A stretch of DNA of 16,707 nt from a virus (lineage: Duplodnaviria > Heunggongvirae > Uroviricota > Caudoviricetes). Of this stretch, positions 766-16,707 are shown piece by piece. Each line of letters opens with the position of its first letter. Within the stretch, counting starts at the first letter, position 1. Position numbers and translations under genes: made by a program. The notes beneath the pieces were generated by a model. The model had not been told where the DNA came from and searched no databases. It saw only the letters and a program-made list of their open reading frames with translations. The stretch is taken from IMG/VR virus record IMGVR_UViG_2547132418_000023. One strand, written 5' to 3'.

Positions 766-781
766 AGCCCGGCGTTATTTT
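754..781 (+). terminator. Rho-independent terminator for the nucleotidyltransferase gene, sitting between convergent genes
   Basis: Perfect 8-bp stem CGCCGGGC (754-761) / GCCCGGCG (767-774), 5-nt loop GTGAA, followed by TTATTTT. The stop codon lies in the loop. No U-tract in the minus orientation. Confidence 0.55.
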
Positions 782-1846: not shown

Positions 1847-1852
1847 TTTTAA

Positions 1853-3847: not shown

Positions 3848-3849
3848 AA

Positions 3850-4482
3850 TTACTCCGGGTAAATAGATGTAATTTCAAGGCTCCATTGCCCTGTTCCGTA
3901 ATAAATCGATGTGTTGTGCTGTACTTCCCGTATCTGGAAAGGTAAAACCGTCGTCAGTTCACCACCATAAAGTGCACAGCCAATAACAGGAATAGCACTT
4001 TGGTTAATGATCCAGACGATTAATGCTTCCAGTTTTGAACGTGTGTTTTTATATTCATGAATGAGTTCTACCAAATCATTGAAAAGGTTTTCATCCAGGC
4101 CTTTATCCACCAGCGCTATATCCACCTTAAAAAAATAAGCCCTTCCCCCATATTCAAACCATTCTGAAATAGTTCCTGGTAATGAGAGTATTTCCAGCAC
4201 CCGCCGCACCGCCCAAATTGTTCCTTTATATTTATGCAGTTCAATGGCTTGTTTAATTAACTCGCGTTTCTCCCGCTCATCGGTGGTAAATAACCAACCT
4301 TCCAGCCCCTGAACGTGAAATTGTTCTGCAAGGGCTGGTAATGCCGAAGCATCAACCTGGTCGATCAGATAAACCATCAACGCCGTCAGATCGAGTTGGG
4401 CAAAACGCTCGGCGGCGATATTTGCCAGAATCGAAAAACGCTCATCGCTGGCAAGCGGCGGCGGTGGCAGCAATTTATCCAT
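3850..4482 (-). CDS. Baseplate/tail protein, P2 gpI-like, about 210 aa
   Basis: The ORF-track start at 4497 is TTG; in-frame ATG at 4480-4482 (MDKLLPPPP...) overlaps the gpJ stop by 8 nt. Positioned between gpJ and the fibre as in P2 J-I-H. Confidence 0.7.
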   Translation of the reverse strand: MDKLLPPPPLASDERFSILANIAAERFAQLDLTALMVYLIDQVDASALPALAEQFHVQGLEGWLFTTDEREKRELIKQAIELHKYKGTIWAVRRVLEILSLPGTISEWFEYGGRAYFFKVDIALVDKGLDENLFNDLVELIHEYKNTRSKLEALIVWIINQSAIPVIGCALYGGELTTVLPFQIREVQHNTSIYYGTGQWSLEITSIYPE

Positions 4483-5590
4483 CGCTGACTCCGGCAATCG
4501 TGACGTCTATTGCGGTGCATTCCGCCCACTCATGCGCCTGCAAAATACGTTTTGTAGGCATATTCAGCGCAACGTCATAGACGCCATCGACCTGTAACAC
4601 TTTGATTATCTGGTTTGGCACAATGTCCTGCCCCAGATGTTTCTGCCGCTGTTGCGTCCAGAGGCTAATCGCTTTACGCGCTGCAGCCAGCGTTGTCTCC
4701 TGATCGGCGGTGGTAAACAGCGTTAGCTGCGCACGGATCTCATATGGCACTCGAAGAGCGCATTTCGCACTCACTTTGTCGGTCAGCGGACGTTTTTTCT
4801 CCTTGCTAACCTCCTGTTCAATTTGCGCGAGCAGTTCTATTCCCGGCAGTCCGTTCAGAGTTAGCGGGTAGATCTCCACGCAGCCTTCTGGCAATCCCTC
4901 GTCCGGCCCCAGTACTGCAACGTCAATAATCGACTGGCTAACAGAAAGCGTATGAAAGCGGTAGGCACCATAGCTGCCCGCATTACTAAAGCTTTCTGGT
5001 GCCAGTTGGATACGCTGGCGCAATGCGTCATCGCTCTCTTCACCGCAGCCGCCCGTTGACGCAGTCAGGTTGGTTACGTTGATGTCATAATGACCAATCC
5101 TGTCGACCAGTGCGCTAATTTGTGCAGGCTGCCAGCCGTTACCCTGTTCACCTGCTGCGAGGCTGGTGGCAGGAACGGCGATATGCAAACTCCTGGCCGG
5201 AAGCAGAACATCTTCATCGGTGGCGAACATCACGCTATCAGAGGCACTGGCCCGCGTTCCCTGGGGAATCAGGATATTGCTGGTATACGCGCTGACGACC
5301 GAAAACTGCAACGTCGTTTTTGCCGGCTGCGCAGGCAAACGGTGAACGCCCACCAACTCCCCTAAATAATCCAGCATTGGCGCGCGGGAATACGCGACCA
5401 GGTTCTGTTTCGCCGCTTCCTGAATGGCGATGCGTACAAGGTTTTCACGATAGGCAAACAGGTCGATGAGCAACCGCTCAGCCTGTGCCGGATAGAGTTT
5501 TTTACCGCTGGCATCTTCGTATTGCGCAATCATCTCACTGGTAATTTGCGCAGGATCGCGGTCAATAAAATTGGGTTCGGCTATCGCCAT
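4475..5590 (-). CDS. Baseplate J-like protein (P2 gpJ / T4 gp6 family), 371 aa
   Basis: ATG at 5588-5590 with GGAGGGG Shine-Dalgarno. Size and position after the gpW-like gene; start overlaps the gpW stop by 10 nt. Confidence 0.8.
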   Translation of the reverse strand: MAIAEPNFIDRDPAQITSEMIAQYEDASGKKLYPAQAERLLIDLFAYRENLVRIAIQEAAKQNLVAYSRAPMLDYLGELVGVHRLPAQPAKTTLQFSVVSAYTSNILIPQGTRASASDSVMFATDEDVLLPARSLHIAVPATSLAAGEQGNGWQPAQISALVDRIGHYDINVTNLTASTGGCGEESDDALRQRIQLAPESFSNAGSYGAYRFHTLSVSQSIIDVAVLGPDEGLPEGCVEIYPLTLNGLPGIELLAQIEQEVSKEKKRPLTDKVSAKCALRVPYEIRAQLTLFTTADQETTLAAARKAISLWTQQRQKHLGQDIVPNQIIKVLQVDGVYDVALNMPTKRILQAHEWAECTAIDVTIAGVSDG

Positions 5591-5940
5591 AACCCCTCCG
5601 TTGAGTTGATAACGCCGTCAGCGGCGCGCCATTGCACACGTAACGTCAGATGTTCGCCGTCGATTACTGGTGTCACCTTCAGCAACCGACAGCGCGGCTC
5701 CCACTGGCGGATGGCTTCCACCGACTCCCGTACCACATGCGGAATTGCCCGCTCGATGGGGTAATCGATGTAGTGCCACAAGTTGCTGCCAAACAGCGGT
5801 CTGTGGGGATCACTGCCGCGCGGTGTGCGCAGAATGATGTGTATTGCCTGGTGAATATCATCCAGTCCGCAGACGTATTCTTCAGGCCGCTGCAAGGCCG
5901 GTTGCCAGTGCAGCGTTGAGGGTCGTGTTTTTGTGTTCAT
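5581..5940 (-). CDS. Baseplate wedge protein, gpW / T4 gp25 family, 119 aa
   Basis: ATG at 5938-5940. Motifs DDIHQAIHIILRTPRGS and IRQWEPRCRLLKVT align with P2 gpW (ILRTPVGS, LKWEPRV) as I recall it. Confidence 0.85.
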   Translation of the reverse strand: MNTKTRPSTLHWQPALQRPEEYVCGLDDIHQAIHIILRTPRGSDPHRPLFGSNLWHYIDYPIERAIPHVVRESVEAIRQWEPRCRLLKVTPVIDGEHLTLRVQWRAADGVINSTEGLWR

Positions 5941-5999
5941 GAGGGTATTTTCGCCCTGAACGGGCTGTGGCGATATTAAAGCGATTTAGAAAACTGATT

Positions 6000-6033
6000 G
6001 ATTAAAAAGAGAAAACCCGCCATCAGGCGGGTT
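6000..6033 (-). terminator. Intrinsic terminator inside the tail operon, between the spike and gpW genes
   Basis: Perfect 8-bp stem AACCCGCC (6014-6021) / GGCGGGTT (6026-6033), loop ATCA. In mRNA sense it is followed by UUUUCUCUUUUUAAU, just downstream of the spike stop. Confidence 0.55.
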
Positions 6034-6038
6034 AAACG

Positions 6039-6740
6039 TCAGTGTGTATGGTGGTTGGAGTTGCCACCGCTGTCCTGCAATGCGCCGCTGGCCTGAACGT
6101 TGCCGATCACGTTGACATTGCCAGTTATCGTGGCGGCGTTACCGATGCCTCCACTTCCTGCCATCCCGCCAAGCCAGGTGAGTTTTTTCATTACCGTGAC
6201 ATTGCCAGTAAAGGTGCTCATGGGCGCATCTACCGTCACTGCTGCCGCTTTAACATCGACCTTAGTGGCGTCGATGCTGACATCGGTCGCTTTAATATCG
6301 ACGGTATCGGAAGTCACGGTGACCTGTTGGGCTTTAATCTCAACGTTGGGTGATGTCAGGCGGGTACTGTCGATAACCTCAATCACGATTTTCTCGATAC
6401 CGCCGTTAATCGTCAGCTGGTGGGTGCTGCGGTCATATTCAAACGCTGCGCCATCAGAAAACTGGACGTAACGTTTATCGCGCGAGGCCACAGGCGCGGT
6501 GTCAACCGTAGAATAAACTGCGCCCAGCACCACGCCATCTTCACCGTTATTGTCCAGCAGAACTTCCACTTGCTCGCCCATATCCGGTAGCCAGTAGTCT
6601 TTATTGTCCTGGGAATTGCGTTGAAGTACCGCAAGCCAGTTGCTCTTCAGATTGTCACACTCCGGAAGCGTGACTCGCACCCGAACGCTGGTTTCGTCAA
6701 TATCGCTGATAATCCCCGTTTGACGGGTTACTCCTTTCAT
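6039..6740 (-). CDS. Baseplate central spike, P2 gpV-like, 233 aa
   Basis: ATG at 6738-6740 with AAGGAGG Shine-Dalgarno. N-terminal OB-like region, then beta-helix-like repeats (VTVTSDTVDIKATDVSIDATKVDVKAAAVTVDA). C-terminus ends NSNHHTH, an HxH apex motif of the kind that binds metal in P2-type spikes. Confidence 0.8.
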   Translation of the reverse strand: MKGVTRQTGIISDIDETSVRVRVTLPECDNLKSNWLAVLQRNSQDNKDYWLPDMGEQVEVLLDNNGEDGVVLGAVYSTVDTAPVASRDKRYVQFSDGAAFEYDRSTHQLTINGGIEKIVIEVIDSTRLTSPNVEIKAQQVTVTSDTVDIKATDVSIDATKVDVKAAAVTVDAPMSTFTGNVTVMKKLTWLGGMAGSGGIGNAATITGNVNVIGNVQASGALQDSGGNSNHHTH

Positions 6741-6749
6741 ATTTCCTCC

Positions 6750-7790
6750 TTACTGGCTGGTCGCTGGCCCGCGTGACACGTCGATTTCAGTGGTATAGCC
6801 GCTGCGCACAAAACTGTGAGTCGATTTATCAATCAGCCACTGACCGGAAAGCACGCCAAAATCGGTCAGTTCAATTTTATTGCCCGCCGTCAGTTCCGGG
6901 CAGCCCATCATCCTGAGCGTTCCGGTTTGTTGATATTCGTTGTGGCTGTCGAGCGCGGCGTTGGCCTTTGCCTGTGCCGCGCCAACGTCCGGCGCCCGAC
7001 TGTTCAGTTTTAGCGTGTCGGCACTGGTGCCGACTCCACGGGCAGACGGTTTTTGCTGGCTGTCGTGGGTGTAGATAACCAGTTCTTTTTTCTTACTATT
7101 TTGATGCTGTACGGTGGCATTTTTGTAGATACGGTTAATGGTATCTTTGAAGGTGAAATGCGAAACGTCTTTGCGGTCGATCGTTTTTACCGGCGCCAGG
7201 CAGCGCAGCGTGGGTAAATGCGAAAAAATCAGTTCTTTGGTGGTCACCTTTACCGCATAGCCATATTCGCTGGCCAGGCGCTTGAGAAATCCGACATCGG
7301 TTTCACCATACTGCGTTACCCGGTCGATGGTGAGCGGCTCGATTTTGCCCACCAGTTTCAGACCGTGCGTTTGGGCGATACGGCTGGCGATAGCCGAAAG
7401 CGTCGTTTCTTCAAAGCCCTGGCTGTTACGGGTACGCAGCGCCTGATTGACGGAAGTGGCGATGCCATCAATATTTACCGTAGAAGGTGGCGCTGAAATA
7501 TCAATTTTATCAATAATATACTGACCACAATCGAGCAGCTTTTCCCCCTGATAACCCATATGCAGCGCCAGCGTATCGCCTTTGCCGGGATACCACTCTT
7601 TTATCCAGCGTCCATCGGTGTCATCCAGTGTAATCGCGATGGTATCTGACTCGTTTTTGATGCTGTCGTGGTAACTGATGCTGGTGACATAGGGTGTGAT
7701 GTCATAAGTGATATCTTTATGCCCATACCAGAGGGTAAAAATGGGCGTGAGTGTGGCAAAGACGCCACCAGTTACGCTTATCTCAGCCAT
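6750..7790 (-). CDS. Baseplate hub, P2 gpD-like (late control gene D family), 346 aa
   Basis: ATG at 7788-7790. Sits upstream of the spike and after gpX as in the T-U-X-D block. The C-terminal region (TGTLRMMGCPELTAGNKIELTDFGVLSGQWLIDKSTHSF) resembles gpD. Confidence 0.8.
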   Translation of the reverse strand: MAEISVTGGVFATLTPIFTLWYGHKDITYDITPYVTSISYHDSIKNESDTIAITLDDTDGRWIKEWYPGKGDTLALHMGYQGEKLLDCGQYIIDKIDISAPPSTVNIDGIATSVNQALRTRNSQGFEETTLSAIASRIAQTHGLKLVGKIEPLTIDRVTQYGETDVGFLKRLASEYGYAVKVTTKELIFSHLPTLRCLAPVKTIDRKDVSHFTFKDTINRIYKNATVQHQNSKKKELVIYTHDSQQKPSARGVGTSADTLKLNSRAPDVGAAQAKANAALDSHNEYQQTGTLRMMGCPELTAGNKIELTDFGVLSGQWLIDKSTHSFVRSGYTTEIDVSRGPATSQ

Positions 7791-7987
7791 GGTGGGATCT
7801 CCGATAAGGTTTTATTGACGGAAATGACCGGAATAATGAGCTGAATACCGGAAGGCAGTACCGGGTAAATGGCGACATGTGGATTGGCGACGATTATGCG
7901 TTCATAAGCCAGCGCATCACCGTAGTAATGCCATGCCAGATTATCCCAGCGTTCGCCGTCGGTGGTGATATGTTCAAGGTATCGCAT
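7778..7987 (-). CDS. Tail protein X (P2 gpX-like, LysM-like), about 69 aa
   Basis: The ORF-track start at 7990 is GTG; ATG at 7985-7987 overlaps the upstream stop (TGATG). Motif WDNLAWHYYGD...ANPHV...LPSGIQLIIP resembles P2 gpX. Confidence 0.75.
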   Translation of the reverse strand: MRYLEHITTDGERWDNLAWHYYGDALAYERIIVANPHVAIYPVLPSGIQLIIPVISVNKTLSEIPPWLR

Positions 7988-8940
7988 CACCAGATCCTCG
8001 TAATGGTCGCGGCAGCAAGCTGGCTCACTGTGGGAGTGGTTTGTTGTACCGTTGTTCGTGCCTGATCAACCAACGTTGCGGCTTTATCAAACGTCGCTTC
8101 GGCGATGTCGCTGGTAATGTCGTCGAAAAGCGCCTGAGCATGGTCAACCAGTGTACTGGCGTCATTGGCGCAGTCCCGGATACCTGGCATGTTACCCAGT
8201 AAAGTTTTAATCTGCGCCGACAACGCTTTTGGGAGTCCTGCCAGCGTTTGCAGATCCATTGGCTGTTTAAACAGGGTTTCGATGGCGTCGATTGTCTTTT
8301 TCAATGACGTAATTATCTTTTCACACTTTTCTTTTAACACTTTGGCCTCTTTAATCATTGCTTTCACTTTTGCCACCGTTTTTTTAATATCTTCAATGGC
8401 TTGTGTCAGTTCATCCAGCATCTCTTTGGCCTTACGCATACCTTCTTCGATGGCGTTTAATATCTGATCAAACCAGGACTCCACCATGTCGGGAAAATCG
8501 CTCGCCTTTTCCTCAATGTTAGGCTCCTGGGTGGTAATCGCCGGAGGTAAAAGTGGATTTTTAGGATCGCCGGTGTACTCCTGGAGCGACATCGTTCCGT
8601 TTTGGGCAATCACATTGCCCCAGGGATCGGTGTGCTGGTGGGTGGCGGTTAGCTCCGTAATTACAAACCAGCCGCGATAATCGCCATTGCCAAATACCAG
8701 TGCCATCGCCTTGTGAGCAAGCATGGCTTCACGCAGTCGATTAAGCTCTGTTGTGGGCTGGCAAAACTGGCTGTGCAGGGAAAATTCCAGCGCCAGCATA
8801 TCCAGCTTATCGCCAATAAACTGCACACCGGGTTTGCCTTCTATACGGGCATGTGTGGCGTAATCCACGCCCATTGTGCTTTTAAAGCCGTCCCAGAATG
8901 CGACAACCTTAAATTCAATCTCTCCTAAAACGGCATACAT
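7987..8940 (-). CDS. gpU-like tail protein with a roughly 165-aa helical C-terminal extension, 317 aa
   Basis: ATG at 8938-8940 overlaps the tape-measure stop (TGATG). N-terminal GDYRGWFVITELTATHQHTDPWGNV resembles P2 gpU (GWFVITSISRQH). The C-terminal half is K/E/A-rich and heptad-like (EEGMRKAKEMLDELTQAIEDIKKTVAKVKAMIKEAKVLKEK). Confidence 0.7.
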   Translation of the reverse strand: MYAVLGEIEFKVVAFWDGFKSTMGVDYATHARIEGKPGVQFIGDKLDMLALEFSLHSQFCQPTTELNRLREAMLAHKAMALVFGNGDYRGWFVITELTATHQHTDPWGNVIAQNGTMSLQEYTGDPKNPLLPPAITTQEPNIEEKASDFPDMVESWFDQILNAIEEGMRKAKEMLDELTQAIEDIKKTVAKVKAMIKEAKVLKEKCEKIITSLKKTIDAIETLFKQPMDLQTLAGLPKALSAQIKTLLGNMPGIRDCANDASTLVDHAQALFDDITSDIAEATFDKAATLVDQARTTVQQTTPTVSQLAAATITRIW

Positions 8941-11315
8941 CAGGCATACCCCCGGCGCTGTTGTTGCGCCATTACGTCGTTAATCATTCTTTCAAGTTCG
9001 CGTTTACTCATCGTCAACACGTTCTGAATCTCTTTAGTGGTGTTTTGTCCGTTACCCTGCACGGTAATCTGTGGCGAAAAATTCACCTGAACTTTTCCAG
9101 AGGAACGGGAAGGTAGCGTCGCCGGTTTGGTTACGGATTTACCAGGTAAAGAGGCCAATGCGGGTTTGGCGGCTGTATTTTTTGCCGCAGGTGCCGATGG
9201 CGGCGTTGTCGTTTTACTGGATGGCGCGAGTTGTTTCCCCACCGGAGGCGTTAAAATCGCACCGGCAACGCCTGGAACAACGCTCGCGGGGGAGACGGAT
9301 GCGGTATTAGTCGTGCTTGTAATAGCTGTAGCCGATCCTTCTGTACTAATACCCATCGTGGTTTTTAGCCAGTCTGGGATGACGTTTTTGACCTGATCAA
9401 TAATGCCTTTCAGAGCGGGGAAGGCATTCATTATGCCGTCGGCCAGGCTAGCCAGAAGATTGCTGCCGAACTCGCTAAAACTCGCAGGCATTTCAACACC
9501 AAACCAATTCATCACACTGGAAAAGGCGCTATAGAACAACTCCAGCGGCGACCAGTCGAGAATTAACCGACAAATTTCTGCAATGCCGCCGTCAAAGGCC
9601 GTGGTGATACGTTGCCAGATGGTAGAAAAGAACCTGGAGATAGGCTCCCAGTTGCGATAAATCAGATAAGCAGCGCCCGCAATCGCAGTGATGACCAGAC
9701 CAATGGGATTCATCAATAAAACCCTACCCAACCAGAAGACGGTCTGACCTGCCTGTTTCAGTGCGCCAATCAGGCCACGACCAAGCAGTTGCGTTAGCCA
9801 TTTTGCACCGCCACCCAATGACTTAACCGCTGATAGCATCTTACTTGCCCCGCCTGTGAGTGCCAGACTTGCCCTGACTTTCAGGAAGATATCGACCAGA
9901 CGAATAAACGGCGAGGCGATGAAGTTCGCGCCCAGTTTTAAAACATTCAGCGCGCCGTTAAACAGCCAAATCGCCCCGACGATTTTCGCAATGTTTTGCA
10001 CCAGTGCCGGGTGCTCACGTAGCCAGGCGCTGAACTGGCGAACAACCGGCGTAAGGCTTTGTGCCAGCTCGCCAATCAGCGGCATTAATTGCAAGCCAAT
10101 GCTGAGCCATAAATCATTTAACGCCAGCTGTAACGCTTTAGTCTGTTCAATGGGCGAGGCCATTTGCGCAGAAAAGTCGGCATCAATCAGATTCTTGCTG
10201 CTGGCTTGCATGGCAGAGGCTTTTAACTGGCGATATTCCTCCATATTCGCCAGCATAGGTGCCAGGAATTCCACAGTTTGCGCATCGCCGAACATTTCGC
10301 CCAGATTAAATTGCGTCACCATCGATTGCAGCGCATTGCTGCGAGCAGATAAATCTTCAATCTGCATAGTGCGTTTGAAGGTGCCGAGGATCGCCGGATT
10401 CATCTTCTCAAGCTGCATTTGCACGATATGAGTCATGGCTTCGCTAACACCCATACCGTTTTGCTGATGCTCAAGCAGAGAGCCTTGCAGATCAACGCCC
10501 TGGCTGGCGAACCAGTTATCGGTTTTTTTCGAAAAGGTGGTTTGCAGAAAGTGGTCGAAATTCTCCGCCGCCGCACTGGCGCTGGCCCCGTTTTTCATGG
10601 CGATCTGCATGATGGCGGTCAGTTCAGCCATACCTTCCAGACCCTGAGCGCCGGTTTTACCTGCAAATTTCTCTATCCACTGCGTTTGTTCGGCAACGGC
10701 AGGCCCACCGCTTTTGCTAATGCCATACATCATGTTTTGCGTGGCGTGGAAATTTTCCGGGGCAATATTCAATCGATCATGAGTCGCGAGCGCGGCATTC
10801 GCCCACGTTTCAGCACTTTCGCGCGTGGCGGTGGCAGCTTTGGCGATCTCCGGCATATAACGGTTGAGATCCTGCATCGACGACAAATTGCCTTCGATCA
10901 GCGTTTGGGCTGCGTTCTGTAAGGTGGTCTGCTGCTGGTTAAAATCCATGCTCCAGTCGCGCAGATTAAGGCTGAGCGTCTCGCGGGTTGTAGCATTCAT
11001 CCCACCTTTGGTCGCCATATTGACCATGTTGTCCTGGAACTCATATGGCAACTTCCAGTCGGGGGCTTCAACATTGAATACCTTGCTAAATTGCCCGGCA
11101 AATGTTTGGGTTTTCTCCATTAGATCAGCGCGGTTCCGGCTATTTTCCTCCAGGCGGAGAGCAGAATCGGCAAGTTGCTGCGTTAGTTTGATTACTGTCG
11201 CTTGCTGAGAAGAGAGAGCTAACAAAGTTCTGGCGTTGAGTGAGCCGTAACGGGCTATTGCCTGCGTCAACGTCTCATTACGCGCCTGAAGCTGGGTAAT
11301 AATATCGTTGGCCAA
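8940..11315 (-). CDS. Tail tape measure protein, 791 aa
   Basis: Long, mostly alpha-helical, hydrophobic central segments, Pro/Ala/Ser/Thr-rich stretch near the C-terminus, located after the chaperone gene. Start is TTG at 11313-11315 (in-frame stop at 11328-11330, no nearby ATG), preceded by AAAGAGAAA. Confidence 0.8.
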   Translation of the reverse strand: MANDIITQLQARNETLTQAIARYGSLNARTLLALSSQQATVIKLTQQLADSALRLEENSRNRADLMEKTQTFAGQFSKVFNVEAPDWKLPYEFQDNMVNMATKGGMNATTRETLSLNLRDWSMDFNQQQTTLQNAAQTLIEGNLSSMQDLNRYMPEIAKAATATRESAETWANAALATHDRLNIAPENFHATQNMMYGISKSGGPAVAEQTQWIEKFAGKTGAQGLEGMAELTAIMQIAMKNGASASAAAENFDHFLQTTFSKKTDNWFASQGVDLQGSLLEHQQNGMGVSEAMTHIVQMQLEKMNPAILGTFKRTMQIEDLSARSNALQSMVTQFNLGEMFGDAQTVEFLAPMLANMEEYRQLKASAMQASSKNLIDADFSAQMASPIEQTKALQLALNDLWLSIGLQLMPLIGELAQSLTPVVRQFSAWLREHPALVQNIAKIVGAIWLFNGALNVLKLGANFIASPFIRLVDIFLKVRASLALTGGASKMLSAVKSLGGGAKWLTQLLGRGLIGALKQAGQTVFWLGRVLLMNPIGLVITAIAGAAYLIYRNWEPISRFFSTIWQRITTAFDGGIAEICRLILDWSPLELFYSAFSSVMNWFGVEMPASFSEFGSNLLASLADGIMNAFPALKGIIDQVKNVIPDWLKTTMGISTEGSATAITSTTNTASVSPASVVPGVAGAILTPPVGKQLAPSSKTTTPPSAPAAKNTAAKPALASLPGKSVTKPATLPSRSSGKVQVNFSPQITVQGNGQNTTKEIQNVLTMSKRELERMINDVMAQQQRRGYA

Positions 11316-11416
11316 AATTGTTTCTCTTTAATTATTGATAATGGCCCACTGGTTATTTTTCTAAAAAAGGGGCTGGGAAGAAATAAACCTGGCGGGCTTT
11401 GAAGAACTCGCAGACA

Positions 11417-11822
11417 TCAGGTCTGGGAGCCATATTCGATCTTTATTTGGTCGCTGGCTTCATCCAGCCAGTTGCTAAAGTCATCTATGGTGAGCGCGTC
11501 TATCTCACTGGGTGGAAAGCGAAACCATCTCGCCAGTAGCGCCATTGCCTGCCATAGCTGGGGAGGATTCTGTAACCACGGTAAGCATGGATTGAAATCG
11601 TTTCTGCAATGCCTGGTAATCCAGCAAATCCATTTCAGCTAAATCTTCTGGCACCAGTCCGGTCATCGCCGCCATTAGCGGTTCATCCCACTCTTCGGGT
11701 TTTTCGCTGATCCGGCGCGCGTTGCGCATATCTTTTACTTTCAGGCGACGTAATTGCAGCGAGTCGATAGTATTTCCTGCTGCCGACGTAAATGGGAACT
11801 GTAAGATATAATGCTCTTTCAT
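11417..11822 (-). CDS. Putative frameshift-extended chaperone (E+E'-like) produced by a +1/-2 shift near the 3' end of the chaperone gene
   Basis: The +1 frame is open from 11638 to a TGA at 11417-11419 and encodes protein-like sequence past the chaperone stop (...WFRFPPSEIDALTIDDFSNWLDEASDQIKIEYGSQT). The -1 frame stops after 8 codons. Slip site not identified. Confidence 0.4.
11505..11822 (-). CDS. Tail assembly chaperone (P2 gpE-like), 105 aa
   Basis: ATG at 11820-11822 with AAGGA Shine-Dalgarno. Position between tube and tape measure. DLAEMDLLDYQALQKRF resembles the gpE family. Confidence 0.75.
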   Translation of the reverse strand: MKEHYILQFPFTSAAGNTIDSLQLRRLKVKDMRNARRISEKPEEWDEPLMAAMTGLVPEDLAEMDLLDYQALQKRFQSMLTVVTESSPAMAGNGATGEMVSLSTQ

Positions 11823-11848
11823 TTTGTATCCTTATTTATGTTGCGAAG

Positions 11849-11868
11849 TTCGGGGCCGTAGCCCCGAA
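11849..11868 (-). other. Intergenic RNA stem-loop between tube and chaperone genes, no U-tract
   Basis: Perfect 8-bp inverted repeat TTCGGGGC (11849-11856) / GCCCCGAA (11861-11868), loop CGTA, in the 47-nt tube-chaperone gap. Confidence 0.5.
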
Positions 11869-11872
11869 TAAT

Positions 11873-12397
11873 TTAGCCACCGATGTTATTGCGATAGGTA
11901 CTTAATTGATCCACGCCGTTAACCCGAAAAATATTCGCCATATAATCAAGTTCAAGCAGCGTTTCACCATCGACCACTTGTTTAATATAAGTACAACCAA
12001 AGGCGCTGCTGAATTCCGGGTTTTCATTCTGTTTAAATGTGCCCAAGGGATTCTTTTTAAACATCACGGTTAAATGTGTCACTAACGCTAATTGATTCGC
12101 TTTCCCCTGGGAGTTATAGCAATCAATACTGGAGCGGCACTGTAATGCTACTGCCTGCCACGGGTTTGCCGTTTTACGCATTACGTCCTGATAAAAGGAG
12201 TTCCATTTAATTTCCCCCTCCAGTTTATCGAAACCAGCCGGGAGTTCGATTTTACCGACCATACCCAGTGCTTTATGCTCTTGCATAATTAAACTGACAT
12301 CCGGCAATTTAATTTCGGTTGCACGACCTAAAAGATTATTACCATCGAGATAAATATTGGCGTTGGTAATACGGTTAATTTGAATTTTTCCAGCCAT
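11873..12397 (-). CDS. Tail tube protein (P2 FII-like), 174 aa
   Basis: ATG at 12395-12397 overlaps the sheath stop (TAATG). C-terminus CTYIKQVVDGETLLELDYMANIFRVNGVDQLSTYRNNIGG closely matches P2 FII as I recall it. Confidence 0.85.
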   Translation of the reverse strand: MAGKIQINRITNANIYLDGNNLLGRATEIKLPDVSLIMQEHKALGMVGKIELPAGFDKLEGEIKWNSFYQDVMRKTANPWQAVALQCRSSIDCYNSQGKANQLALVTHLTVMFKKNPLGTFKQNENPEFSSAFGCTYIKQVVDGETLLELDYMANIFRVNGVDQLSTYRNNIGG

Positions 12398-13821
12398 TAG
12401 CTATTGCTCTCCAGAGAGACTAAATATTCAGAAGTAATTTCAGTTTCAAACGTCAGACGTTCCAGCGGCGGCGGCGGGGTGAATTTATAGCTAAGCAATA
12501 AATGCCCGGCGCTGAGTTCAGCCGGTGAATTTCGCGCCGGATCGTACCAGCACTCAAAGCCAAGCAGTGCGCCGTCGGCAATCAGTTTTCGGCCCCAGGT
12601 ATTTACCGATTCGGTCAGCGCGTCAATAAGAGCCTGATTAATCGGCATATCAATATACTGCTGACTGAAATAACGGATTGACTCATTAATTACATCGCCT
12701 GTCCGGCGAACGTTTTCAAAGTTACGCATATGGGTCACGGTAGGCCATGCCGCTGTGCGGTTGCCCCACAAGCGCAGACCAGAACCGTAACTATTGAAAA
12801 TAGTGGTAATGCCGTTTTCGTTGAGCTGATTCACTTCGCTTTGTGGATCATCAATCATTGCAGAAAGCGAACGTTCAATACCGGTAATACCCTGAATTTC
12901 CTGGTTTGAGTTGCTCCACCAGAAACCTTTTTCGAGGTCTACTTTGGCACGTAGCCCGGCAGCGCGCGAAGAGAGTGGTTCGAGAACTTCCTGGTTAGTG
13001 ATGCCATCGTAAACTTTGACGTGTGGGTAACATAAACGCACACGATCAGAGCTGGTATTGAAGTTGATAGCCCCTTGCGAACCGCGTCCAGCCAATACCT
13101 GCTGGAATGTCGTCCCAATCGGAGCATCAATGTAGGTAAGCGCACCGAGTTTTTCCGCTTGTGCAATCAGCTCAGTAGTTACTGATTTTTGCGTACAAAA
13201 CACGGGAGCAAGCAGGATTTTGGCGTAGAAACCGTACAGGTTATAGGTGTCCTGAAGGAGTTTCATCCCCGTGCGGTCGCCTGCGGTATTTACGGCACCG
13301 ATAATATCGGCTGCGGTGACCTTTGTAGGGTCGCACCAGGAATAATAGGCGCAAACTTTCGCACCAGGAGGAATGTCGGCTCCTTTACGGGTAATTATGC
13401 CTGTTTGTTCATCTACGCTAAATGCTGCGGTGTTAAAGGTTGATGAATTTGATGAAGAGGGCTTTAGTACCACGTTACGCACATTGCGGTGAGCGAGCTT
13501 CGCCTGGTTGTTAGCGTCAAAAGTGATACTCTCATTGCTGATGTTGGAGCCATGTTTTGCCGGATCCAGCACGTTAATCACCACCACCGTACCGGCACCG
13601 TGGTCATAAATCGCCTTCAGTGCCTGTGGGATCGTAAAGTTAGCCTGAGTCGAGCCAAACTGCGCAGCATCGCTTTCAGAAAGGCATAATGTTGGTTTAT
13701 TTACCGGACCGCAGGGGGCCGTACCGATTAAAGCGATGACGGCGGATTTTACCGCTTTAACCGGACGCGGGCCGGTTTCAATTTCAATGGTTTCTACACC
13801 GTGCAGGTAATTAGCTGCCAT
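12397..13821 (-). CDS. Tail sheath protein (P2 FI-like), about 474 aa
   Basis: The ORF-track start at 13827 is TTG; ATG at 13819-13821 is preceded by GAGGA. C-terminal region (LRLWGNRTAAWP..., ECWYDP..., LSYKFTPPPPLERLTFE) matches sheath proteins. Confidence 0.9.
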   Translation of the reverse strand: MAANYLHGVETIEIETGPRPVKAVKSAVIALIGTAPCGPVNKPTLCLSESDAAQFGSTQANFTIPQALKAIYDHGAGTVVVINVLDPAKHGSNISNESITFDANNQAKLAHRNVRNVVLKPSSSNSSTFNTAAFSVDEQTGIITRKGADIPPGAKVCAYYSWCDPTKVTAADIIGAVNTAGDRTGMKLLQDTYNLYGFYAKILLAPVFCTQKSVTTELIAQAEKLGALTYIDAPIGTTFQQVLAGRGSQGAINFNTSSDRVRLCYPHVKVYDGITNQEVLEPLSSRAAGLRAKVDLEKGFWWSNSNQEIQGITGIERSLSAMIDDPQSEVNQLNENGITTIFNSYGSGLRLWGNRTAAWPTVTHMRNFENVRRTGDVINESIRYFSQQYIDMPINQALIDALTESVNTWGRKLIADGALLGFECWYDPARNSPAELSAGHLLLSYKFTPPPPLERLTFETEITSEYLVSLESNS

Positions 13822-14008
13822 GTACAATTTCCTCTACGTTATTTTGTTCTTCCTGAGTGATGACAGGAGTCAGATGATTGCGGGCAATCATGGTCATGAC
13901 CCACTCGTTGTCTTCTGGCAGATCAATTTCACTGTTCGGCCACAATAAGATTTCTTGTCCATCGGCAAGGGTGACGCCGCTTGCCGGGCCGTTGTAGATG
14001 TATTTCAT
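13811..14008 (-). CDS. Small conserved tail-module protein (Mu gp38-like), 65 aa
   Basis: ATG at 14006-14008 overlaps the upstream stop (ATGA). Position directly before the sheath, as in Mu-like phages. Family assignment from memory. Confidence 0.4.
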   Translation of the reverse strand: MKYIYNGPASGVTLADGQEILLWPNSEIDLPEDNEWVMTMIARNHLTPVITQEEQNNVEEIVHGS

Positions 14009-14460
14009 TCAGTTTCCTCGTAGTTAACTTCCGTAAGCAGGGGAAGATCCGTGCTTTCCTGTTCAGCGATAAACAGCGAGCTGGTCGCCATTTCCAGGAT
14101 GTAGCGGCAGAAACCGCCGCTCTCACCCGTATTAATTTCTTTTTCAAGCCAAAGCAGACGATCGCAATCAGGAAGCTGAAGGCCGCCCAATGCGCTGCGT
14201 ATGCAATCAAGTGCGTTTAACGCGTCACAATTTTTGTCAACAATAACGGTGGCGGTTAAGCGGAGTATTTGCTGTTGCACGATGGCATCACTGCTTTCGG
14301 GTGTGGTAAAGACAGAACCGCTATAATTAATAATCACTGCAACTTGTTGTGTCTGTGGAATATATTTCTGGGCATCCGTAGATGAAATAAATATATCCAT
14401 TTCAGGATGCCGATCACGTAATTTGACCATGACATAATTCATTGCAGATAAAATTTTCAT
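14005..14460 (-). CDS. Putative tail completion/terminator protein (Mu gp37-like), 151 aa
   Basis: ATG at 14458-14460. First gene of the tail operon after the terminator. VAVIINYSGSVF-type motif. Family assignment from memory. Confidence 0.45.
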   Translation of the reverse strand: MKILSAMNYVMVKLRDRHPEMDIFISSTDAQKYIPQTQQVAVIINYSGSVFTTPESSDAIVQQQILRLTATVIVDKNCDALNALDCIRSALGGLQLPDCDRLLWLEKEINTGESGGFCRYILEMATSSLFIAEQESTDLPLLTEVNYEETE

Positions 14461-14564
14461 ATGAGGTGTACCTTAATTACCGCTCACTTCGTTATCGTTG
14501 AGATGTATTATGAAGCAGTGAAGGTGAAGAATCTTTTAATGTGATTTAGAGAAAAAATTGAATG

Positions 14565-14601
14565 GCTATAAAAAATCCCCACACTTACGTAAAGGTGGGG
14601 A
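14565..14601 (-). terminator. Intrinsic terminator separating the lysis cassette from the tail operon
   Basis: 7-bp stem TCCCCAC (14576-14582) / GTGGGGA (14595-14601) with a partly self-complementary loop. In mRNA sense followed by UUUUUUAUAGCC, just after the 14607 stop. Confidence 0.5.
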
Positions 14602-14606
14602 TGTAT

Positions 14607-14921
14607 TTAATAACTGCCACGTTGTAACAGCTCGATTTTGCTATATAAGGCATCCAGCTTTGCTTCTAATACTGCTTGCCCACGAAGATAATCTTCTCTG
14701 CGGACATAATGCAGCGGAAGCTCGGCACGAAATTCAAGAAACTCTCTTTCCAGTTTCGACCAACTTGTTTCTGATTCCCTGCGGGCATTTTCCAGAGACT
14801 CAAAACGCTCATTAAGTCGTTTTTCAATTTGCGCTAACAGCAGTTTTCCGGCAGCAAACATTAATCCAACGAAGGAAAGCATAAGGGAGATCACTTCCCA
14901 AAAATCGATACTGAGTTTCAT
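14607..14921 (-). CDS. Membrane-anchored coiled-coil protein, possible lysis accessory (i-spanin-like), 104 aa
   Basis: ATG at 14919-14921 with GAGGGG Shine-Dalgarno. N-terminal hydrophobic helix (VISLMLSFVGLMFAAGKLLLA) then charged heptad-like sequence. Last gene of the lysis cassette. Confidence 0.5.
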   Translation of the reverse strand: MKLSIDFWEVISLMLSFVGLMFAAGKLLLAQIEKRLNERFESLENARRESETSWSKLEREFLEFRAELPLHYVRREDYLRGQAVLEAKLDALYSKIELLQRGSY

Positions 14922-14933
14922 CGGCCCCTCTGA

Positions 14934-15539
14934 TTAGTGAAGACAGCTTGCCTGTCCCCAGAGTAAATAGCGGGCAGCGTGTTGATAGAGAATCATCTTT
15001 GGATAGCGACGATTTTCTCGCCAGTTCGCGGCGCTGCGCCCGGCGTTGACTTGCTCGACATGACCAAACCAGCGAGTGGCATCTAACCCTTTGGATGCAG
15101 CCAGTTTTTTATCCCGGTTAACCCACCCCTGACCGCCGTTATAGGCGCTTAGGGTAAACGCCATACGCTGACAGTCATTTTGCGCAGAGATGTTTTTCCA
15201 CAAATGCTGGTCATATTGCACCAGCGCGCGAATCGCCCAGGTTGGGTTATACGGTTTGTTTTCACGCAATTGTGGATACAACTGGCTTATCCATGTCGCA
15301 GTAGCAGGCATAAATTGCGCCATACCTTGTGCGCCAACGGGGGAACGTACCATTGGCTGCCAGGCGGACTCCTGGTGTAATTGCCCGGCAAAGTCGGCCA
15401 CTGGGGCATTCAGCCCCCAGACTTCTCGAGCTGTACGAATTAGTTCGTTTCGCCATGCCAGAGAGGCTCGCGGCGGTTCAGAGGCGTTAAGCGGGAAAAG
15501 AACGAAAATAATCATAGACGCGATATATTTCAGCCACAT
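14934..15539 (-). CDS. Endolysin candidate: lytic transglycosylase (SLT-like) with N-terminal signal/SAR sequence, about 201 aa
   Basis: The ORF-track start at 15617 is TTG; ATG at 15537-15539 (MWLKYIASMIIFVLFPLNAS...) lies 2 nt after the holin-like stop with AGGG upstream. HQESAWQP has the catalytic Glu-Ser context; GAQGMAQFMP and AYNGG are SLT-like. Confidence 0.7.
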   Translation of the reverse strand: MWLKYIASMIIFVLFPLNASEPPRASLAWRNELIRTAREVWGLNAPVADFAGQLHQESAWQPMVRSPVGAQGMAQFMPATATWISQLYPQLRENKPYNPTWAIRALVQYDQHLWKNISAQNDCQRMAFTLSAYNGGQGWVNRDKKLAASKGLDATRWFGHVEQVNAGRSAANWRENRRYPKMILYQHAARYLLWGQASCLH

Positions 15540-15541
15540 CA

Positions 15542-15829
15542 CTATAGCCCTAAGGCGACGGAAAGACAGACGGCGGCAACGATGATGGCGCGGCGAATCA
15601 TTGCCGCCGCGCAGCAACGCGGTTCCTTCCAGGGGCTAAAAGAGTCAGGCCGTGCCCAGGGGAACAAACTGCGATCGAGCCAGTATCCCAGAACCGCGGA
15701 AAGCGAAACCAGGCTTAGTTTATAAATGACGACCGGGATCTGTGCTGAAGAGGTCCAGCCGATCACGACAAACAGCGCGACGGAAGCGACCAGCCAGCCG
15801 GAAAGCCGGGGAAAAGTGACTTTTTTCAT
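15542..15829 (-). CDS. Holin-like small membrane protein, 95 aa
   Basis: ATG at 15827-15829 with AGGAG 7 nt upstream. Two to three predicted TM helices (WLVASVALFVVIGW, LSLVSLSAVLGYWL, AIIVAAVCLSVALGL). Immediately precedes the endolysin. Confidence 0.55.
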   Translation of the reverse strand: MKKVTFPRLSGWLVASVALFVVIGWTSSAQIPVVIYKLSLVSLSAVLGYWLDRSLFPWARPDSFSPWKEPRCCAAAMIRRAIIVAAVCLSVALGL

Positions 15830-16125
15830 ACGATATCTCCTGATAAGTGAGCGTTTAGTGTCGTCAGAACCCGCCAGTGAAGAATGAAAAAAGCTTTAAT
15901 AAATAAGTTTAAAAAATAGATTCTCTATAAATGAACATGCCCGCTAATAAATCGACTCAGCAATTAAAGAGCAAACGGTGACCTGGCGAATAAGCGCGTC
16001 ATTATGCAGGGAAAAGATGATGGTGGATCGTAGGAATAGTCGATAGTTATTTGATTTTTAAAGTTTGTTTAAGAAAGTCAGCGACTGTGAGGGAAACGAT
16101 CTTTTTACACTACAGGTAAAAATAA

Positions 16126-16145
16126 TACTGTATGTGCATACAGTA
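16126..16145. promoter_or_regulatory. LexA (SOS) box
   Basis: TACTGTATGTGCATACAGTA is a 20-bp palindrome with CTGT-N8-ACAG, one mismatch from the E. coli recA operator as I recall it (TACTGTATGAGCATACAGTA). It lies in the divergent control region. Confidence 0.7.
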
Positions 16146-16166
16146 TCGTGTAAAATGATACTCCTG

Positions 16167-16197: not shown

Positions 16198-16365
16198 TAT
16201 TTAGTGAATTTATGCGTACATTAATATTAAGAATTTATATTTCTGGTGATTGTTTATTTGTTTGTTGAATGTATTGAGTAGCAGTAATGACAACTGCTTA
16301 GCGTATATCCGTGGTTTTACACGCATCGGGTCTTATTCAGGATGCAAGATATATGGAGATGAAAA

Positions 16366-16707
16366 ATGATACGAAAATCAAAAGAGATGGCCCGGACACC
16401 GGAGATCATTAACGACCTGGCTTTTCATGCATCGCAAGTTCTGATTGAAAGCATCAATCTCGACAGTTCATCGGCAGAAAATGTGGGTTTTGCCATTGCC
16501 GACCGAATGATGCGTAACTGGGGCGGACAAAGCATTTATTTCCCTAAGGGGATCTCCGGACGAGCATCGGAGCGTGACTACCAAATCTATAGCGAGTGCG
16601 ATGGGCGCAACTACGCCGAATTAGCGAAGAAATATAATCTGACGCTGCAATGGATTTATAAGATAGTCAAACGTGTACATACGGAGAAGCAGCAGAGTCG
16701 TATGTAG
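16366..16707 (+). CDS. Mor/C-family transcriptional activator (Mu middle/late activator-like), 113 aa
   Basis: ATG at 16366 with GGAG upstream, TAG at 16705-16707. GGQSIYFPKG...DYQIYSECDGRNYAELAKKYNLTLQWIYKIVKR parallels Mu Mor (GGGQVYIPRG...DLRIWNDFNGRNVSELTTRYGVTFNTVYKAIRR). Confidence 0.8.
   Translation: MIRKSKEMARTPEIINDLAFHASQVLIESINLDSSSAENVGFAIADRMMRNWGGQSIYFPKGISGRASERDYQIYSECDGRNYAELAKKYNLTLQWIYKIVKRVHTEKQQSRM

Follow-up and report, generated by a model that had tools for sequence, protein, structure and literature searches.

The window, meaning the whole stretch of DNA analysed (16,707 nucleotides), carries a lysis operon, a tail module and a divergently oriented gene for a transcription activator (Table 1). 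The lysis operon consists of a holin gene, a gene for an exported SLT-type lytic transglycosylase and a gene for a membrane-anchored helical protein of 104 amino acids. This order had been proposed by an earlier reading of the sequence only, and the three ORFs lie exactly where that reading had put them, each with profile matches.

Table 1. Features of the lysis operon and of the surrounding element, with their positions in the window and the evidence for each
Feature	Position	Strand	Evidence
Tail module	780..14460	-	Pfam + PHROG scans; RefSeq annotation of identical locus (E. coli S10)
Conserved promoter-like block upstream of tail operon, TTTTTTCTCTAAAnCAnATTAAAAGA ... TAATAC	14505..14558	-	Alignment of eight genera
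Intrinsic terminator ending lysis operon	14566..14602	-	RNA folding
gp25-family protein, 104 aa	14607..14921	-	phrog_462 E=6e-34, residues 1-102
SLT-to-gp25 junction, 12 nt, TCAGAGGGGCCG, contains Shine-Dalgarno	14922..14933	-	Junction alignment, eight genera
SLT-type lytic transglycosylase endolysin, 201 aa from ATG	14934..15539	-	PF01464 E=1e-14; phrog_669 'endolysin' E=1e-61
Holin, BcepMu gp21 type, 95 aa	15542..15829	-	PF13272 (Holin_2-3) E=4e-27; phrog_1528 'holin' E=5e-35
Conserved promoter-like block upstream of holin, TTTTTTAAAnTTATTTATTAAAG ... GAyACT	15857..15920	-	Alignment of seven genera
Mor-family transcription activator	16366..16707	+	PF08765 Mor E=2e-37

The element is a headless Mu-type (BcepMu/carotovoricin-like) contractile tail cluster of the E. 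coli chromosome. Its tail module is complete and encodes a Gp37-family protein, a 65-aa protein, the sheath, the tube, a tail assembly chaperone and the tape measure, as well as GpU, X, D, V, W, J, I, a tail fibre, a DUF4376 protein and a 151-aa protein. The two genes at its far end (780..1235 and 1232..1846) match tail-fibre families or an uncharacterised moron family. No head, packaging, replication or transposition genes were found in the window by Pfam and PHROG scans or in the RefSeq annotation. As in an R-tailocin, a full contractile-tail set is thus combined with lysis genes in the absence of head, packaging and replication genes, and the cluster occupies a fixed chromosomal locus across strains and species and is under purifying selection. 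The cluster was present in 197 of 5426 complete E. coli genomes (3.6%), and the same cluster was found in Salmonella, Enterobacter, Superficieibacter, Phytobacter and Dryocola. It adjoins lysC in seven genera, with the same junction; in complete genomes (E. coli S10 RefSeq and likewise Enterobacter and Salmonella), lysC is located just past the Mor gene. The Salmonella copy corresponds to STM4207-4219 and is devoid of the baseplate J, I and fibre genes. We found no report in the literature of particle production by the lysC-type cluster, and no functional information in papers naming STM4216, STM4217 or STM4219. The 'tailocin' of E. coli ST131 (PMC9205054) and kosakonicin (PMC6629978) are both P2-type and unrelated to the lysC-type cluster. 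The headless tail cluster had been missed when the lysis genes were first read, and its presence changes what 'lysis' is for at this locus.

The holin possesses three hydrophobic segments and is 50% identical to gp21 of BcepMu and 54% identical to its counterpart in PhiKM, and differs from both by being about 20 loop residues shorter (95 aa versus 115-116 aa in the BcepMu/PhiKM-type holins). The endolysin is 54% identical to gp22 of BcepMu and 59% identical to its PhiKM counterpart. Its N-terminus, MWLKYIASMIIFVLFPLNAS followed by EPP, is short, strongly hydrophobic and signal-peptide-like, and comparison of the N-termini of nine genera showed that an AxA-type site directly precedes the conserved mature start (E/Q)PPRA. 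The SLT endolysin is therefore predicted to be exported by the Sec pathway and cleaved. This N-terminus does not have the Gly/Ala-rich SAR-type anchor with a basic N-terminus that is the type of target of Mu gp25. A longer version of the protein, starting at a TTG codon at 15617, would add an Arg-rich cytoplasmic N-terminus like that of the releasin-dependent Mu gp22; this candidate was rejected. An NTG codon is found at -26 of the SLT gene in eight genera and derives from the conserved Arg-Cys codons of the holin (CGN-TGC), the equivalent open stretch of BcepMu has no start codon, and pS in the overlapped last 27 codons of the holin gene (0.66) is not below that of the rest of the gene (0.64-0.74).

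The Mor gene is divergent from the lysis operon and is the sole regulator gene of the element; its dN between genera is 0.06-0.11. No sigma-70 consensus promoter was found upstream of the holin gene, and the conserved block located there may be a late promoter that depends on Mor. A similar block precedes the tail operon. Between the two operons, RNA folding identified a terminator hairpin (14602..14575, -15.5 kcal/mol, z=-3.5) followed by U6, which a simple terminator scanner had missed because of an internal mismatch and loop. The lysis genes had been said to be separated from the tail operon by a terminator of their own, and this hairpin is indeed real. It is conserved in five of the eight genera compared (E. 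coli, Salmonella, Phytobacter and two Superficieibacter), with compensatory changes in the stem; in Enterobacter, Dryocola and Lelliottia it is either weak or missing.

We then consider the spanins. The sequence-only reading had reported no o-spanin in the cassette, and scanning the window for lipoboxes in all six frames bore out its claim. The scan returned zero lipobox ORFs on the minus strand between 14300 and 16400, and no lipobox candidate with a basic n-region and a hydrophobic h-region in any of the six frames of the window. A scanner of the same kind, run on related loci as a positive control, picked up a Pro-rich Rz1-type lipoprotein ORF in 62 of the 64 that have a gap of 500-900 bp between the SLT and gp25-like genes, and a credible Rz1-type ORF in none of nine loci with a short junction. 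The Rz (gp23) and Rz1 (gp24) proteins of BcepMu and the Rz-like protein of PhiKM had no tblastn match in the window (E>0.8). A unimolecular spanin of the T1 gp11 type was also rejected, the window having no lipobox ORF and the membrane helix of the 104-aa protein being N-terminal instead of C-terminal. A search for a disruptin-like peptide covered every minus-strand ORF of 15-95 aa from 14400 to 16400. The sole strongly cationic small ORF among them (16326..16210, net charge +7) has no counterpart in other genera, and the out-of-frame ORFs nested in the SLT and gp25-like genes have no signal sequences and are conserved less than their host genes, no better than the overlap predicts.

Comparison of gene orders showed what is missing. 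In BcepMu, B3, JBD67, PhiKM and a Salmonella Mu-like prophage the order is holin, SLT, Rz(/Rz1), gp25-like, gp26-like, TerS and TerL, and in more than 60 related phages and prophages the gp25-like gene comes after a complete Rz/Rz1 pair and before the gp26-like and TerS genes. An Rz gene of about 600 bp with an embedded Rz1 is located in the related phages at the position where the SLT-to-gp25 junction is short in the lysC-type loci (8-12 nt in the junction alignment and a gap of 16-28 nt in the locus survey), none of which has Rz/Rz1. In the survey of 84 loci, the phage-type loci with an SLT match all had a gap of 500-900 bp, except for one of 2.6 kb. The 12-nt junction of the window thus appears to mark the site of the spanin deletion. 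The remaining genes are under strong purifying selection. Between genera, dN/dS was 0.04-0.08 for the holin, 0.09-0.13 for the SLT endolysin and 0.04-0.07 for the gp25-like gene (0.04-0.13 over the three lysis genes), and dS itself was either saturated or around 1 and above. In six or more genera the whole lysis operon, Mor and the tail genes are intact.

The 104-aa protein is an orthologue of BcepMu gp25, B3 ORF28 and Salmonella STM4216, and shows 45-50% identity to the phage members of the family in tblastn comparisons (46% with BcepMu and 50% with PhiKM). The phrog_462 family, which has no Pfam entry, comprises about 1000 clusters at 50% identity, with 993 representatives matching at E<=1e-3. 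The protein contains one hydrophobic segment (approximately residues 5-30), and AlphaFold2 predicted two helices, at residues 7-67 and 75-102, with a pLDDT of 80. Foldseek searches of BFVD and the PDB with this model gave no match at E<1, and no match was found for the family profile among PDB sequences. The motif LPxxYVRREDYxRGQxxxEAKLD, conserved in the family, is present in the protein, and residues P69, Y72, V73, R75, D77, R80, Q82, E86, K88 and D90 are invariant or at least 90% conserved in family alignments. The mean number of K+R in the flanks of the membrane helix is 0.29 on the N side and 2.89 on the C side, the C side being higher in 119 of 120 family members. This distribution matches that of DUF2730 and is opposite to what is seen in Rz from related phages, where the N flank carries a net charge of +2.25. 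The 104-aa protein is thus predicted to be N-out/C-in, with its helical domain in the cytoplasm, a call made by the positive-inside rule only, the net charges of the flanks being near zero as acidic residues offset the basic ones.

These results do not agree with the resemblance to an i-spanin that the protein had been credited with. Its orthologue, BcepMu gp25, coexists with a full Rz/Rz1 pair and is encoded downstream of it, tblastn revealed no similarity to Rz, and the charge pattern is the reverse of that of Rz. Since the 104-aa protein is not an i-spanin, both spanin genes are absent, and it is the whole Rz/Rz1 pair that is missing and not the o-spanin alone. The other role, such as lysis timing, that had been offered as a fallback for this protein is the better-supported idea.

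The lysis cassettes of BcepMu (gp21 holin, gp22 SLT, gp23 Rz, gp24 Rz1 and gp25) and of the Bcepmuvirus-like enterobacterial phages PhiKM and KP12 have homologous holin, SLT and gp25-like genes with order and strand conserved, but they differ from that of the window by the presence of the Rz gene of about 600 bp with its embedded Rz1. The gp26, packaging and head genes being gone from the window, the cassette is followed by the terminator and then by the tail genes. Carotovoricin, a Mu-type R-tailocin of Pectobacterium, is likewise a headless contractile-tail cluster from a BcepMu-like phage (PMC13566846, PMC11974492); the Pectobacterium loci that we compared are taken to be carotovoricin from this literature. 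Clusters of this type have, like the window, the holin, SLT and gp25-like genes upstream of the Gp37 and sheath genes, and the sheaths show about 75% identity. However, the clusters of Pectobacterium, Samsonia and Lonsdalea keep Rz/Rz1 and a gp26-like gene and have no Mor gene within 6 kb, whereas the lysC-type clusters have lost Rz/Rz1 and gp26 and keep the divergent Mor gene. The R-pyocins of Pseudomonas aeruginosa are tailocins with a holin and an endolysin and no rz/rz1, as in the window (PMC4684702), and are released by explosive lysis, which in tailocin producers comes after a spheroplast stage (PMC7815802). They differ by their unrelated holin and endolysin families, their P2-type tail, their PrtN/PrtR regulators and the lack of a gp25-like gene. 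Spanins are also absent from 91 of 677 phages (PMC6139136), and such phages, for instance phiKT with its gp28 disruptin, resemble the window in Gram-negative lysis without i- or o-spanins (bioRxiv 515445; PMC6139136); unlike phiKT, the window has no conserved gene for a small cationic peptide.

Taking the gene identities, the synteny, the absence of spanins, the purifying selection and the terminator as observed, we consider that the window probably carries the lysis operon of a domesticated headless Mu-type tail cluster, from whose ancestor Rz/Rz1 was deleted and in which the gp25-like protein serves as a non-spanin lysis accessory, the outer membrane failing without a fusion protein. The operon would have originated from a BcepMu-type cassette (holin, SLT endolysin, Rz/Rz1, gp25 and gp26) by a clean deletion of Rz/Rz1 in the common ancestor and a second deletion extending from gp26 through the last head gene. 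At lysis, the three-TMD holin would fire, and the SLT endolysin, exported via its cleavable Sec signal, would degrade the cell wall upon holin firing. The gp25-family protein, whose N-terminus would hold it in the inner membrane while its helical domain faces the cytoplasm, may control holin triggering or the release of the endolysin, in the manner of the releasin gp25 encoded in the same slot of Mu. After degradation of the wall, the outer membrane would fail by turgor-driven bursting of the rounded cell with no dedicated fusion protein, as must also be the case for the rz/rz1-less R-pyocin clusters of P. aeruginosa, and the tail particles would then be released. Berry and colleagues are said to have found in 2012 that the spanins of lambda are essential for lysis in the absence of shear, so that spanin-free release may be inefficient or may need an unrecognised factor.

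Our analysis makes the 104-aa protein a candidate for a lysis accessory of the releasin type. Like it, the releasin gp25 of Mu (DUF2730, PF10805; Chamblee et al. 2022, PMC9239132) measures about 100 aa, begins with a membrane helix and is predicted to be N-out/C-in, with a helical domain inside the cell, and the domain of approximately 70 aa on the cytoplasmic side that characterises DUF2730 in that work is also predicted for the 104-aa protein. The positions of the genes are equivalent. The 104-aa gene is directly downstream of the SLT gene and its phage orthologues are located between Rz/Rz1 and the gp26-like gene, the gene for Mu gp25 comes just after the spanins and before gp26/gp27 and TerS, and the DUF2730 gene of Fc02 lies between Rz and a gp26-like gene. 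In B3-like Pseudomonas phages, the gp25-like and DUF2730 families even alternate at one position. All this would agree with the 104-aa protein being a very divergent but true DUF2730 releasin, freeing or activating the exported SLT endolysin exactly like Mu gp25, a proposal to which some weak profile signals also lend themselves; we nevertheless consider it unlikely. There is no significant sequence similarity between the 104-aa protein and Mu gp25. PF10805 had no match in the window protein and four phage orthologues at E<=10, and a blastp comparison of gp25-like and DUF2730 proteins yielded nothing. When the two families were compared with hhalign, shallow profiles gave probabilities of 0.1-0.3%, and a deeper profile gave 13% (P=0.002) over residues 5-48, but these residues include the membrane helix, where spurious similarity often arises. 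PF10805 was among the five most frequent sub-threshold Pfam matches of the relatives, such matches being seen in 4 of 150 of them (best E=0.011) amid equally weak coiled-coil matches. No search was significant, including hmmsearch run in both directions. The conserved C-terminal motif of the gp25 family has no counterpart in DUF2730.

The lysis systems themselves differ, since Mu has no holin and a SAR muramidase and the window has a holin and an SLT endolysin with an apparently cleavable signal peptide. This endolysin looks like an ordinary cleaved secretory protein and lacks the SAR-type anchor targeted by Mu gp25, whereas the target of the Mu releasin is a SAR endolysin with a basic N-terminus, and the mechanism of Mu may therefore not be transferable. 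The gp25-like gene has been kept in two headless lineages that have no packaging genes at all, which fits a role in lysis. We tentatively suggest, as a possibility that is still doubtful, that the gp25-like family is a second, sequence-unrelated class of releasin-type lysis factors of BcepMu/B3-like transposable phages and their tailocin descendants, and that holin, secreted SLT endolysin and gp25-like protein could constitute a complete spanin-free system of envelope disruption in Enterobacteriaceae.

It is also conceivable, but quite unlikely, that an unrecognised disruptor of the outer membrane is encoded elsewhere in the cluster or within the SLT or holin genes, or is borrowed from the host, for example the Rz/Rz1 of resident lambdoid prophages. 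The strong purifying selection on an operon lacking a step considered essential suggests that this step is covered, disruptin-type peptides replace spanins in phiKT (bioRxiv 515445), and genes 780..1235 and 1232..1846 have no clear function. However, the window contains neither a lipobox ORF nor a candidate unimolecular spanin, the cationic ORF 16326..16210 is unconserved, the nested ORFs have no signal sequences and no conservation beyond the overlap, and the two far-end genes match tail-fibre or uncharacterised moron families.

That the cassette is the decaying remnant of a prophage, its lack of spanins reflecting gene loss in a non-functional element, is highly unlikely. Such decay could account for the loss of the J, I and fibre genes from the Salmonella copy, for the presence of the element in only 3.6% of the complete E. 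coli genomes and for the silence of the literature on particle production, but it is contradicted by the intact lysis, Mor and tail genes of at least six genera, with dN/dS of 0.04-0.13 at saturated dS, by the conservation of the junction, the terminator and the promoter-like blocks, and by the complete tail gene set of the E. coli copy. Hardly credible, finally, is the proposal of a new variant of the spanin mechanism, in which the 104-aa protein would act as an i-spanin or similar coiled coil in the periplasm, either with no lipoprotein partner or with an outer-membrane partner that has escaped recognition: the protein's size, its single N-terminal membrane helix and its long helices are those of short i-spanins, its gene directly follows that of the endolysin, which is the usual place of Rz, and Kongari et al. 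allow for unconventional topologies and partners in spanin-less phages (PMC6139136), but in more than 60 loci an orthologue follows a genuine Rz/Rz1 pair, the protein does not resemble the Rz proteins of related phages, its positive-inside statistics are opposite to theirs, and the motif LPxxYVRREDYxRGQ is identical in phages with spanins of their own, which indicates that the gp25-like protein was unchanged upon spanin loss.

Spanin-less tailocin cassettes, those of the P. aeruginosa R-pyocins, and spanin-less phages were already known. The present locus amounts to a natural deletion experiment, in which, once Rz/Rz1 had been cleanly removed, selection has kept a BcepMu-type cassette in six or more genera of Enterobacteriaceae. 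As the cassette is maintained without this pair, spanins are dispensable for whatever the element does, and E. coli offers a tractable system in which to study how the outer membrane is breached in their absence. The sole gene kept beside those of the holin and the endolysin encodes a widespread membrane protein that occupies the releasin slot of Mu-like genomes, and its retention is the best available clue to a role of the family in lysis rather than in packaging. The cluster itself is an undescribed carotovoricin-like tailocin cluster of E. coli and Salmonella (STM4207-4219). The 'lipoprotein' label that the gp25 family bears in PHROGs and RefSeq was examined as well and rejected: the window protein contains no Cys and the FLGAC of B3 ORF28 is not a conserved family feature, so that this propagated annotation is an artefact and is corrected here.

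The whole window (1-16707) is a headless Mu-type contractile-tail cluster next to lysC. A 1.6-kb region of it matched E. coli chromosomes at 100% identity. Of 5426 complete E. coli genomes, 197 had this region, and in 196 of these it was contiguous across the junction between the SLT-type lytic transglycosylase (SLT) gene and the gp25-like gene. In E. coli S10, the element is flanked by lysC and by yjbD/rluF and carries, in order, a divergent Mor, three lysis genes, a Gp37-family gene, a 65-aa gene, sheath, tube, chaperone, tape measure, GpU, X, D, V, W, J, I, fibre, DUF4376 and one more ORF, with no head, packaging or transposition genes. The same lysC-adjoining element was found in the Enterobacter cloacae complex, Salmonella, Superficieibacter, Phytobacter and Dryocola (related loci L003, L009, L010 and L093 were listed with it). 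No literature description of the lysC-linked cluster as a tailocin was found; its recognition in E. coli, Salmonella and Enterobacter as a putative carotovoricin-like tailocin is apparently new.

The lysis cassette consists of three closely packed ORFs (minus strand, 14607-15829) followed by a hairpin, which bears out the proposal of the sequence-only reading that the cassette has its own terminator. At 95 aa, the holin of the lysC type falls some 20 residues short of its phage homologues (115-116 aa); the loop joining hydrophobic segments 2 and 3 is absent, and this short form is found in all lysC-type genera.

Coordinates of the features of the cluster and of related loci (L numbers)
Feature	Coordinates	Strand	Details
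Holin, 95 aa	15829..15542	-	Pfam Holin_2-3, E=4e-27; phrog_1528 'holin', E=5e-35; three hydrophobic segments
SLT-domain protein, 201 aa	15539..14934	-	PF01464, E=1e-14; phrog_669 'endolysin', E=1e-61
Open SLT frame within holin gene	15540-15617	-	
Third protein, 104 aa	14921..14607	-	one hydrophobic segment close to N-terminus
Terminator hairpin	14602..14575	-	-15.5 kcal/mol, z=-3.5, then U6; ends lysis operon
Conserved block ahead of tail operon	14505-14558	-	blocks alike in 7-8 genera
Conserved block ahead of lysis operon	15857-15920	-	blocks alike in 7-8 genera
38-aa ORF	16210-16326	-	+7 charge; AT-rich Mor-holin intergenic region
RlaP-family nucleotidyltransferase	1-765	+	PF10127, E=4e-96
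151-aa ORF	780-1235	-	no Pfam family; matches phrog_1128
Phage holins of 115-116 aa	L001:1447-1794, L002:1277-1627		
B3 ORF28	L004:2501-2890		FLGAC
SLT with lipoprotein signal	L019:4736-5347, L028:4736-5347, L029, L035:4684-5292, L057, L080, L082, L088, L017		

The SLT begins with MWLKYIASMIIFVLFPLNAS/EPP in the window (slashes mark putative cleavage sites). Comparison of nine genera showed that the N-terminal ~20 residues are weakly conserved and that the constant elements are a short, strongly hydrophobic core and an AxA-like site abutting the conserved mature start (E/Q)PPRA. The SLT had been described as signal/SAR-bearing; the exported type of its N-terminus was upheld, while the SAR part was not, this segment reading as a Sec signal that is probably cleaved off, not as a SAR anchor. 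The SLTs of several relatives start with a convincing lipoprotein signal, such as MRHLLITLLVSPMLFSAAAC/AD or MKAVILLILLITAC/HP, and the E. coli copy has a signal without Cys; because of these relatives, SPase I-type and lipoprotein-type export seem to alternate within the family. The SLT frame is also open upstream, where it has an RBS-like GGAAGGAA and, in eight genera, an NTG codon at -26; a protein begun there would gain an Arg-rich extension at its N-terminus. This upstream start, with dual coding of the holin gene, was rejected: conserved Arg-Cys codons of the holin account for the NTG, and the synonymous sites of the holin are unconstrained there.

The sequence-only reading had seen no o-spanin and had proposed a lipoprotein-signal search. 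A scan of all six frames (ATG, GTG or TTG starts, with a relaxed lipobox allowed up to residue 35) gave no lipoprotein signal on the minus strand at 14300-16400 and no credible candidate in the entire 16.7-kb window, in agreement with that claim. The same scanner recovered a Pro-rich Rz1-type ORF (for example ...CLLVASC/STTTPLSVCPP...LPPLP) in 62 of 64 related loci with a gap of 500-900 bp between the SLT and gp25-like genes, and no credible one in nine of nine short-junction loci. In tblastn, Rz and Rz1 of BcepMu and the Rz-like protein of PhiKM, an E. coli phage, had no match in the window.

Beyond the gene identities, the absence of spanins, the selection and the operon boundaries, all of which were observed, we infer an order of events in which Mor would turn on the lysis and tail operons, the SLT would be exported, the holin would build up and then trigger, the wall would be degraded and the cell become round, and turgor would burst the outer membrane without a fusion machine, freeing the tail particles. 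Tailocin producers undergo explosive lysis after a spheroplast stage (PMC7815802), and P. aeruginosa R-pyocin clusters lack rz/rz1, though most other pseudomonad tailocins have them (PMC4684702). Neither part is of a new kind, one being a BcepMu-type lysis cassette and the other a Mu-type tailocin, and tailocin cassettes without spanins have been described before, so the missing spanin is real but not very surprising. The main weakness of spanin-free bursting is the lambda requirement: the 2012 work of Berry et al. reportedly found spanins essential for lambda lysis without shear, so an unrecognised compensating factor is possible. A hidden outer-membrane disruptor is possible, although no candidate survived the scans, and no conserved small cationic ORF was found among the minus-strand ORFs of 15-95 aa at 14400-16400. 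The strongly cationic 38-aa ORF between Mor and the holin is conserved in no other genus, has no obvious RBS and is probably spurious.

The third protein has no Pfam or NCBIfam family; it matched phrog_462 over its full length (E=6e-34) and is 45-50% identical to BcepMu gp25, PhiKM XRL29436 and B3 ORF28. The family comprises 993 clusters at 50% identity (E<=1e-3), with a near-invariant C-terminal motif, LPxxYVRREDYxRGQxxxEAKLD. AlphaFold2 predicted helices at 7-67 and 75-102 (mean pLDDT 80). phrog_462 and several RefSeq phage records are named 'lipoprotein', apparently because B3 ORF28 has, by chance, a lipobox-like FLGAC. Its Cys is not conserved and is missing from most family members, and the window protein contains no Cys anywhere. 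Basic residues (K+R) averaged 0.29 before the membrane helix and 2.89 in the next 15 residues after it, the excess after the helix holding in 119 of 120 members, and the positive-inside rule predicts a cytoplasmic helical domain.

Our leading functional inference is that the third protein acts as a releasin does, or as some other lysis accessory of the inner membrane. Phage Mu gp25, a 99-aa, N-out/C-in DUF2730 protein required for release of a SAR endolysin, was named releasin (PMC9239132), and its gene occupies the same slot, after the spanins and before gp26/gp27. Pseudomonas phage Fc02 has a DUF2730 protein between Rz and gp26-like, and B3 and JBD67 have a phrog_462 protein at exactly that position. 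The two families are thus positional and architectural equivalents, and DUF2730 proteins also show the same basic-residue pattern. True membership of DUF2730 is possible, unproven and not claimed here, since PF10805 gave no match even at E<=10, blastp gave none, and hhalign gave 0.1-0.3% probability with shallow profiles and, with a profile from 147 diverse representatives, 13% (P=0.002) across the 44 residues nearest the membrane; sub-threshold PF10805 matches in 4 of 150 relatives (best E=0.011) lay among equally weak coiled-coil noise. The i-spanin resemblance noted earlier was not sustained, and a partner-less i-spanin is very unlikely: the protein has no homology to Rz, its predicted topology is opposite, the Rz proteins of the same phages having the reverse basic-residue pattern, and BcepMu, PhiKM, B3 and a Salmonella Mu-like prophage share the order holin, SLT, Rz (Rz1 embedded), gp25-like, gp26-like, TerS, TerL, portal. 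The gp25-like protein thus occurs alongside a genuine spanin pair without being part of it. Selective retention of a widespread, uncharacterised membrane protein in the releasin slot is apparently new.

A survey of 84 loci showed three architectures. The phage type (the majority) has Rz/Rz1, gp26 and terminase; a headless type in Pectobacterium (11 species), Samsonia and Lonsdalea keeps Rz/Rz1 and gp26, followed directly by Gp37 and sheath; and the lysC type lacks Rz/Rz1 and gp26. Carotovoricin is a 'Mu-type tailocin' (PMC13566846; PMC11974492), and from this literature the Pectobacterium type is probably carotovoricin. All lysC-type copies have the same SD-containing SLT-gp25 junction of 8-12 nt (12 nt in the window, slightly longer in Lelliottia), which points to a single ancestral deletion of Rz/Rz1; such a clean, conserved excision from an otherwise intact cassette is apparently new. 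The lysC-type holin, SLT and gp25-like proteins were 71%, 65% and 76% identical to those of the Salmonella Mu-like prophage and more distant from the Pectobacterium carotovoricin-type ones, at 57%, 60% and 66% (loci L018-L029, L039, L043 and L051 versus the window and L011). Because of this, and because the Pectobacterium clusters have no Mor nearby, unlike the lysC type, the two headless lineages may have been domesticated independently.

Synonymous divergence of E. coli from the other genera ran from ~1 to saturation, and dN/dS was 0.04-0.08 for the holin, 0.09-0.13 for the SLT and 0.04-0.07 for the gp25-like gene, the neighbouring Gp37 gene being higher (0.20-0.30). Five of eight genera have kept the terminator, with compensatory changes in its stem. 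The conserved block after it, TTTTTTnnCTAAAnnnnATTAAAAG ... TAATAC, resembles that upstream of the holin, TTTTTTAAAnTTATTTATTAAAG ... GAyACT. Strong purifying selection and conserved boundaries therefore indicate that the cassette is kept by selection and that the spanin loss is old and stable, which contradicts a decaying remnant. Both blocks are AT-rich (TTTTTT..TAAA..ATTAAA(A)G, then a -10-like hexamer ~25 nt downstream), have neither a sigma-70 consensus promoter nor a sigma-70 -35 element, and may be Mor-dependent late promoters; no control of Mor was visible in the window.

The Salmonella copy corresponds to LT2 tags STM4207-4219 and ends after baseplate V, where a GtrA-like gene comes next. 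At its far end, the cluster in the window carries the RlaP-family gene, next to which S10 has a slipin gene, and the 151-aa ORF, for which the phrog_1128 label (moron, 'enoyl-CoA hydratase-like') is unconvincing.
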